From: Schmidtea polychroa
Lineage: Eukaryota
Length of the DNA stretch: 64,000 nucleotides
NCBI GenBank assembly: GCA_044892525.1
Contig: CM097885.1
Span: 1,302,001 to 1,366,000 of the forward strand
Direction: 5' to 3'
Shown here: positions 45,841 to 46,361 of the stretch, piece after piece
How positions within the stretch are numbered: the first letter of the stretch is position 1
How the letters are laid out: each line of letters begins with the position of its first letter
Notes under the pieces: generated by a model
Seen by the model: only the letters and a program-made list of their open reading frames with translations
The model's database searches: none
What the model was told of the DNA's origin: nothing
Position numbers and translations under genes: made by a program

Positions 45841-46361
45841 ATGTCTCAATTTATGGAAAATCTTTTAAGAGAACTCGTCAACAGGAATATTATGGAAAGC
45901 CTCTGTTTCCTGGTCGATCGGACCGAAAAGATTATAGAAGGTAATCACATTGATTATGAAGATGTGATCAATTCTGATTGTCTCGAAACCAAAAAATTCT
46001 ATTTTAATAGAATTTTTAACTGTCTATGCGACGATCAGATGAAGTGGACCCGAATACTAGTAGGGTTCGCTTATATGAAAATAATAATCCAAAGAAGTCT
46101 ATGGGACTCAGAGCACTATTATCAGTGGTCTCAAGAAGTAATACTTTTATAATTTATATTTTATTAATATTTATTTTCTAGATAATCAAGTCAAAGTTTC
46201 AAACATGGATTGAAGCCAATGGCGGATGGGGAGTACTCAATCAACTCGCCAGAAATGCGAAGGAAATTGATGATCAGAAAAGAAAATTTAAAAACTATGT
46301 AAAACTTGCAACAGGTGTTGCTATTTTGTATATTTTAACCAGATTTTTAAATAAAAATTAA
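45841..46361 (+). CDS. Bcl-2 family homolog, two exons (45841-46137, 46182-46361), 158 aa
   Basis: BH1-like DDQMKWTRILVGFAY; 44-nt phase-0 GT-AG intron; BH2 WIEANGGW; C-terminal anchor LATGVAILYILTRFL. Confidence 0.88.

Follow-up and report, generated by a model that had tools for sequence, protein, structure and literature searches.

A candidate spliced Bcl-2 family gene in both terminal repeats of a planarian Maverick element

Introduction

Positions 45841–46361 of a 64,000-nucleotide stretch of Schmidtea polychroa DNA (contig CM097885.1 of assembly GCA_044892525.1, positions 1,302,001 to 1,366,000; hereafter the window, whose coordinates are used unless another locus is named) raise the question of whether two short open reading frames (ORFs) form a single gene for a Bcl-2 homolog, what kind of element carries this gene, and what the gene may do for its carrier. 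The preliminary description of this segment proposed a viral Bcl-2 homolog in a Maverick, spliced across a 44-nt intron and hidden from the ORF track. The analysis presented here indicates that a spliced Bcl-2 family gene of a Maverick is very probably present. The fuller account, in which this two-exon gene encodes a tail-anchored, host-derived and anti-apoptotic protein, is probably the best explanation of the locus as a whole.

Structure of the gene and its second copy

Read directly from the window, the gene starts on the plus strand with ATG at 45841–45843. Exon 1 (45841–46137; 99 codons) contains BH3-like and BH1-like (KWTR) regions. The intron (46138–46181; 44 nt) has GT at 46138–46139 and AG at 46180–46181, with GTAATA at its 5′ end and TTTTCTAG at its 3′ end. 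Exon 2 (46182–46361) contributes 59 codons and the stop codon TAA (46359–46361), and encodes the BH2 motif WIEANGGW and a hydrophobic tail between basic residues. When the exons are joined by their coordinates with a script, a stop-free product of 158 amino acids is obtained. The GT-AG intron, the joined frame and the motifs WIEANGGW and KWTR of the preliminary description are therefore all present as claimed. Without splicing, the frame ends after 103 amino acids. The stop-to-stop ORF list contains 45829–46152 (107 aa) and 46182–46361 (59 aa) as separate entries in different frames, and it is thus fair to call the gene hidden from the ORF track. The hexamer AATAAA occurs at 46350–46355, where it overlaps the last codons of exon 2, and again at 46387–46392. 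Upstream of the gene, a putative promoter at 45781–45812 (plus strand) combines CCAAT at 45781–45785 with TATAAATA at 45805–45812, 29–36 nt before the ATG. Both elements, which together lie 29–60 nt ahead of the ATG, are also conserved there in each of the four gene subfamilies defined below.

A second copy of the gene is found on the minus strand at 59025–59545 (exon 1, 59249–59545; intron, 59205–59248; exon 2, 59025–59204) and is likewise intact. The two copies differ at two sites, both in exon 2: 46203, which encodes Thr in the left copy and Pro in the right copy, and 46347, which is synonymous. The 24-nt stretch that encodes BH2 occurs twice in the window, at 46206 (plus strand) and 59157 (minus strand), and the expected number of occurrences is 0 based on 100 shuffles. 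The earlier statement that the frame is intact in both arms thus holds, and the arms (45030–48662 and 56719–60355) are 99.45% alike.

The Maverick element carrying the gene

The gene lies within the terminal inverted repeats of a Maverick/Polinton at 44303–61396, which was assigned to gene subfamily A and has the termini 5′-AGTAGATGG...CCATCTACT-3′. These ends were set by comparison with a second subfamily-A insertion (L041–L043), and the attribution of the gene to a Maverick was borne out by this comparison. The terminal inverted repeats are 4.4 kb long. The left one (44303–48662, plus strand) contains a minisatellite, a (TTA)n run, the Bcl-2-like gene, three small minus-strand ORFs and a TBP-like gene, and the right one (56719–61396, minus strand) is its mirror image. 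Because the gene is located in both terminal repeats, it is present twice per element, with each copy oriented from an end toward the interior. The minisatellite consists of GGTCATATGACTCATC-like units just inside the ends, at about 44400–44900 and 60600–61250, and is followed on the left by the (TTA)n run at approximately 45028–45126; both vary in length between arms and between copies.

Apart from the Bcl-2-like gene, each repeat has a TBP-like gene (48233–48625 on the minus strand in the left repeat and 56756–57217 on the plus strand in the right repeat; Pfam TBP scores of 54.3 and 56.1 bits for the two copies). Pfam also identified the start of an A32-like packaging ATPase and a chromodomain remnant in the same plus-strand ORF (48656–49336). 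No rve core was found in the window element, in which the chromodomain remnant is the only trace of this region; the subfamily-A sister copy has both rve and chromo (L042:2110–3258). Further plus-strand features are a weakly supported fragment of a double-jelly-roll capsid gene (51312–51929; DJR-like E-value of 0.0058, below the cut-off), an adenain-like protease gene (51871–52341; Peptidase_C5, 26.3 bits) and the N-terminal part of a protein-primed polymerase gene (54797–56755). The polymerase ORF is 45% identical to the 443-aa N-terminal ORF of the subfamily-B element (E-value of 5e-116) and has no match to the catalytic 696-aa part of the subfamily-B polymerase (E-value of 0.84). This copy of the element is defective and is not autonomous.

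In the L041–L043 insertion, the left flank corresponds to window positions 1328–1745 and the right flank to 1741–2873. Since these flanks are contiguous near 1741–1745, the window also holds the uninterrupted target. Comparison of the filled and empty sites revealed six extra bases at an AT-rich target for the L041–L043 copy. The termini of the window copy match those of L041–L043, and its two flanks are inverted copies of a single repeat, such that a target duplication is unreadable there. The repeat unit targeted by subfamily-A elements contains PolB-like and Endonuclease VII-like ORFs and is intact near 1741–1745. The same target repeat flanks the window element on both sides, at 41475–44300 and 61399–64400, in opposite orientation, an arrangement that simple insertion does not explain. 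Other ways of delimiting the element were rejected. The outer limit of the whole palindrome (40525–65253) falls inside a polymerase motif rather than at a terminus, satellites made an alignment of the window with the ends of the subfamily-B element uninformative, and the 1.5-kb flanks of L001–L010 stop inside the minisatellite.

Membership in the Bcl-2 family

For Pfam searches, the curated cut-off of the Bcl-2 family (PF00452) is 31.4 bits. In the profile search, exon 1 of the window gene scored 17.1 bits (E-value of 0.0083), which is below this cut-off, and the read-through sequences of subfamilies C and D scored above it. Bcl-2 was the sole family listed for the window exon 1 at an E-value of 0.01 or less, and the window exon 2 alone had no Pfam match. 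For exon 1 of subfamilies B, C, and D, Bcl-2 was the best match as well (20.4, 22.2, and 21.5 bits, respectively). When copies of subfamilies C and D are read through the intron, with TAG treated as X, the scores rise to 34.6 and 34.4 bits, and the matches cover profile positions 6–100 and both exons. These genome-wide matches above the cut-off arise because an intron of 45, 48 or 51 nt keeps the reading frame and contains a single in-frame TAG. The C and D genes are 67–85% identical to the window gene per exon. Two proteins to which the window product is clearly related, P0004 from the host and the multi-copy paralog P0003, each exceed the Pfam cut-off alone (46.0 and 32.7 bits, respectively).

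A profile built from four host and other Bcl-2 sequences, with no rows from subfamilies A–D, gave the joined product 47.1 bits, compared with 7.2 bits for the best of 500 shuffles; exon 1 alone scored 24.5 bits and exon 2 alone 14.2 bits. Searches of PDB sequences with phmmer pointed in the same direction. The read-through query matched 75 sequences at an E-value of 1 or less, and all 60 of those shown belong to the Bcl-2 family (best E-value of 0.0047). The window exon 1 matched A1/Bfl-1 with an E-value of 0.11 among 13 matches in all, which included a falcipain, and the five matches of the window exon 2 are all Bcl-2/Bcl-xL at BH2 (E-values of 0.9–1.6). When exon 1 served as a single-sequence query against 1.84 billion proteins, no canonical Bcl-2 protein was found at an E-value of 0.001 or less, the only match being P0002, and a word-based homolog search with exon 1 returned only P0001, an unspliced reading of 103 aa.

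In the ESM Atlas, the first three clusters for exon 1 carry Pfam Bcl-2 (0.93, 0.91, and 0.91), and 18 of 30 neighbours share the family set of the first cluster; these results serve as a lead. AlphaFold models of exon 1 alone (pLDDT of 62.9) and of the subfamily-C read-through (pLDDT of 49.1) are both all-helical and of a confidence too low to settle the fold. Foldseek found no match for either low-confidence model at an E-value of 0.001 or less. Its best matches for these models were a schistosome BCL-2 (E-value of 2.5) and Bcl-xL (E-value of 0.024), with TM values of 0.3–0.4, and the rows listed were mostly (exon-1 model) or all (read-through model) Bcl-2 family chains. The assignment to the Bcl-2 family rests on sequence.

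The motifs occur in the expected order, with BH1 followed by BH2. The BH2 motif WIEANGGW is canonical, and W..NGGW is invariant in all six aligned exon-2 rows. In BH1 (KWTR), Trp is present in all nine aligned rows and Arg in eight, and Thr replaces Gly. The only invariant columns in the nine-sequence alignment are Leu21, in the BH3-like region, and Trp69, in BH1. The tail stretch LATGVAILYIL, which has basic residues on either side, pairs with the tail of the host protein in the alignment; it is predicted to be a tail anchor. The preliminary description pointed to KWTR in place of NWGR as a change that may alter binding in the BH3 groove; a reading of KWTR as a viral oddity is not supported. 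The nearest host protein has RWSR and the intronless paralog has CWSK at this position, whereas other host paralogs have NWGR. The absence of the BH1 glycine thus characterizes this branch of the family and is not peculiar to viruses.

Evidence for the intron

Among the sequencing runs listed with matches, none is recorded as RNA. The joint 46137/46182 was absent from the contigs of four of these runs (X1, X2, X3, and X6), the RNA status of which is only a guess. Contigs of X1 and X6 cover the intron, and the joints reported for X6 represent other skips, with short sides. Within X1, a contig stops exactly at 46137 and another begins exactly at 46182. Such ends are expected where an assembly graph branches into a spliced and an unspliced form, although among the 131 contigs on 1 kb, which represent many variant copies, the coincidence is only a hint that is given no weight here and may be due to chance. 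The protein collections contain only unspliced readings of 103/104 aa (P0001 and P0002, the latter from subfamily B). Given these results on RNA junctions, the case for splicing rests on comparison among copies and relatives.

A first look at the 781-Mb genome that includes the window, which is assembled with four very large contigs, revealed approximately 2,400 candidate gene copies, often in plus/minus pairs 8–16 kb apart. Among the scored exon-1 matches, 149 of 150 (subfamily A) and 148 of 150 (subfamily B) are stop-free. However, most copies are 97–100% alike, such that their intactness alone says little. The copies examined further were the best exon-1 matches, and their intactness accordingly represents a biased sample. 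More informative are the differences among the four gene subfamilies, namely A (that of the window), B (P0002 and L011–L022), C (L035), and D (L037 and L038), which share 64–81% identity in exon 1 and 69–85% in exon 2. The intron starts with GT and ends with AG in all 24 copies with a complete model (22 plus L037 and L038). Its length is 44 nt in nine copies of subfamily A; 44, 46 (four copies), 51, 52 (two copies), 54, and 96 nt in subfamily B; 45 nt in both L035 copies of subfamily C; and 48 and 51 nt in subfamily D. These lengths shift the frame between copies; nevertheless, in the frame predicted by splicing, IIKSKF forms the start of exon 2 in every case. Four further copies are off this pattern: L009 is intact but has GRW for GGW, exon 2 of L006 is interrupted by a premature stop, and deletions disrupt the frame of exon 2 in L020 and L022.

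Both exons are under purifying selection. Between subfamilies, dN/dS is 0.07–0.12 for exon 1 where computable, dS being saturated in four of nine comparisons, and 0.11–0.48 for exon 2. In the variant table of contigs on the window, third codon positions hold 12 of the 19 exon-1 variants listed. Intron bases are 75–89% identical between subfamilies, which is no less than in the exons. Length variation, rather than substitution rate, is thus the sole mark of the non-coding status of the intron.

Comparisons with relatives outside the four subfamilies bear on the same junction. With BLASTP, residues 10–99 of the window exon 1 align to residues 37–126 of P0004 (E-value of 4e-10), and residues 1–19 of exon 2 align to residues 127–145 (E-value of 3e-4), so that exon 1 ends and exon 2 starts at neighbouring residues of P0004, 126 and 127. 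In a scripted alignment to P0005, the joined product forms one gapless stretch (10–155 to 37–182; 72.4 bits, E-value of 7.9e-21). The separate scores against P0005 are 37.4 bits for exon 1 and 36.6 bits for exon 2 (residues 1–56 to 127–182), and the joined score is about their sum. Furthermore, the intronless multi-copy paralog P0003 (L036) is continuous through the junction point. Taken together, these comparisons make a strong case for the predicted intron. Splicing and expression of the Bcl-2-like gene in vivo are inferred.

Relationship to host Bcl-2 genes

The genome has several cellular-looking Bcl-2 genes (L023–L034). P0004, from L034, is the host reading up to BH2 that is free of introns, and P0005 is a full-length relative that is 87% identical to P0004 and is named "Bcl2-like protein, Schmidtea mediterranea" in UniRef. 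The nearest cellular relative of the Maverick gene is the Bcl2-like gene of its planarian host. P0005 and the window product are collinear over 146 residues without gaps, including BH1, BH2, and the tail anchor, with 25% identity. They differ in that the host protein has a 27-residue N-terminal extension that is lacking in the Maverick product. The gene structures differ as well. The host gene L034 has an intron (GTGAGT) directly after the GGW codon, whereas the Maverick gene has no interruption at this site and its intron lies 16 codons upstream. The position after GGW, right behind the BH2 tryptophan, is the canonical intron site of the Bcl-2 family. In addition, the host Bcl2-like gene is not in the repeated families among the best 150 rows of the genome Pfam listing. 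The most likely history is that a processed host transcript was captured and that an intron was then gained in the ancestor of subfamilies A–D. Among further mobile Bcl-2 genes of this genome, the P0003 family (L036) is an intronless 152-aa ORF family (32.7 bits) with at least eight copies listed.

Sister elements and other Mavericks

The subfamily-B element extends from L044:6924 to L046:3706 and has 1.46-kb inverted repeats (L044:6924–8381 and L046:2232–3706). Both ends start with AGTAGGGTATTG (identical AGTAGGG termini), and a 6-bp target duplication, TCCGTG, is present on both sides. Its Bcl-2 gene begins 867 nt from either end and is oriented toward the interior. Core genes identified by Pfam include PolB (101.4 bits), A32 (31.3 bits), and Peptidase_C5 (27.9 bits), as well as rve (31.4 bits, cut-off of 32.6) and chromo; a TBP-like gene is also present. 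A capsid gene was not found by Pfam in this element.

TBP-like genes (Pfam TBP, 52–56 bits) are also found at L045:61–549, L042:364–825, and L036:2494–2961. In subfamilies A and B, the TBP-like gene shares the end region with the Bcl-2 gene, and the intronless P0003-type gene likewise has a TBP-like neighbour (53.6 bits). The pairing of these two accessory genes appears to be conserved among these Mavericks.

The window also contains a separate, complete-looking Maverick at 5472–20493, with 503-nt inverted repeats that match by 100% and with genes for PolB, A32 ATPase, rve, adenain, and a double-jelly-roll capsid (89.9 bits). In a profile scan of all window ORFs, the Bcl-2 signal was confined to the four exon ORFs, indicating that this Maverick lacks such a gene. 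Its integrase ORF (16015–17286, minus strand) has a phospholipase A2-like domain (PF08398; 37.1 bits, cut-off of 23.9) ahead of rve. This domain is known from parvovirus capsid proteins. Contigs of X3, which is labelled as a different organism (organism B), match the upstream region and the beginning of exon 1 at 45600–45938 with five differences in 339 nt, and a portion of exon 2 at 46206–46286 with six differences in 81 nt. Related elements may thus exist under a second species label, although the share of sampled words is small (0.19).

Proposed function and alternative explanations

The proposed protein would anchor in the mitochondrial or ER membrane, and its groove would hold pro-apoptotic host proteins that bear BH3, as suggested by the family and by viral precedents. 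The protein may be made early from both ends of the element. The death of a cell with an active element would then be delayed, and the cell would stay alive while the element replicates or moves. For this anti-apoptotic direction, which draws on analogy, our confidence leans only somewhat to the positive side. The broader suggestion of the preliminary description, that this Maverick acts as a true virus in controlling host cell death, is an inference; the exon joint did not appear in the contigs, and the window copy of the element also lacks an integrase core and the catalytic half of its polymerase.

The main competing explanation is a real Bcl-2 family gene with another role, such as a Bax/Bak-like killer, a regulator of autophagy or calcium, or a blocker of innate immunity like the Bcl-2-fold proteins of poxviruses. 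It could account for the replaced glycine in KWTR, BAX is among the PDB matches, and one neighbour cluster in the ESM Atlas lists Poxv_Bcl-2-like (11% of members). Moreover, sequence alone cannot separate pro-survival, pro-death, and non-apoptotic members of the family. Nevertheless, the nearest relative is the host Bcl2-like protein, which has the same kind of BH1 variant (RWSR), and the best PDB matches are the pro-survival proteins A1/Bfl-1 and Bcl-xL. To our knowledge, nearly all viral Bcl-2 homologs studied are pro-survival. Another role is thus considered rather unlikely, and an anti-apoptotic gene remains the preferred reading.

Two further alternatives concern the gene itself. If the intron were unused, the locus would produce a truncated protein of 103 aa or be a silent relic, and the frame of exon 2 would be kept merely through the youth of the copies. 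The purely unspliced readings in protein collections, the lack of the exon joint in the contigs of all four runs, and the near-identity of most copies agree with this possibility. However, subfamilies that are 15–36% apart in residues keep both the frame of exon 2, at the dN/dS values given above, and GT..AG despite changes in intron length. The gapless fit of the junction to the host protein and the continuity of P0003 through the same point also argue for a functional intron, and an unused one appears very improbable. Finally, the several cellular Bcl-2 genes of the host could suggest that an ordinary cellular paralog lies beside transposon sequences by chance. This idea, to which we give practically no credence, is refuted by the number of candidate copies, by their frequent arrangement in plus/minus pairs, and by the location of the gene within inverted repeats that are delimited by the termini of an element and by a target duplication of 6 bp. 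A spliced gene that belongs to the Maverick is accordingly retained.

Comparison with known systems

Bcl-2-type genes in mobile elements are not a new category: earlier publications describe Bcl2 homologs in Mavericks of animals and a BCL2-like domain in the Burro elements of planarians. Starrett et al. (2021; PMC8502044) report Bcl2 and IAP homologs in adintoviruses, which are animal Polintons/Mavericks, with Bcl2 genes labelled on the maps. The adintovirus genes and the gene described here are alike in being accessory Bcl-2-like genes in animal elements of the Maverick type. Features that may set the present gene apart are its planarian host, its location in both terminal repeats, its spliceosomal intron, and its approximately 2,400 candidate copies. 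A BCL2-like motif or domain has also been described for the giant Burro LTR retroelements of planarians (Arkhipova and Yushenova, 2019; PMC6431247), which likewise are planarian mobile elements with a Bcl-2-like module. The Burro domain is part of a retroelement polyprotein, whereas the present gene is a free-standing and spliced gene of a DNA element. Bcl-2 profile matches of about 29 bits were found by the genome search inside ORFs of 1,000–3,000 aa, which fits the description of Burro.

Similar to E1B-19K of adenoviruses and vBcl-2 of herpesviruses and poxviruses, the gene is a small accessory gene of the Bcl-2 type near the end of a virus-like linear dsDNA genome in which the protease, capsid, and polymerase genes are adenovirus-like. 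As a mere lead, one neighbour cluster in the ESM Atlas (0.86) includes Adeno_E1B_19K (20% of members) and Bcl-2 (16%). Sequence comparison gave no direct match to E1B-19K; the Maverick gene is closer to cellular Bcl-2, and a shared function is assumed. In the literature searched for Maverick/Polinton with Bcl-2 and for planarian with Maverick, which left bioRxiv supplements and subscription journals outside its scope, this gene, its intron, and its location in the repeats were not found. Planarian Polintons are reported to be silenced by piRNAs and activated during differentiation (PMC8532177), and a 2026 preprint describes an expansion of Mavericks in Dugesia (10.64898/2025.12.11.693146).

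Implications for planarian biology

The locus provides a checkable case of a virus-like transposon with a cell-death regulator that appears to come from the host lineage and is duplicated in both ends of the element. The presence of an intron where the cellular gene has none speaks for intron gain inside a mobile element, and it suggests that accessory genes of Mavericks are transcribed and spliced in the nucleus. Planarian regeneration depends centrally on cell death and stem-cell turnover, and thousands of intact Bcl-2-like genes may be present in such a genome. A more speculative possibility, which we regard as unlikely but worth stating, is that planarian Mavericks keep an "early region" in both repeats, composed of a host-derived Bcl-2 gene with an intron gained after capture and a TBP-like gene, and that the approximately 2,400 copies held in check by piRNAs partake in the control of cell death. 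If this were true, de-repression during differentiation or upon loss of PIWI would flood cells with a survival factor, and the elements would partake in cell-death control and tissue turnover of their planarian hosts.
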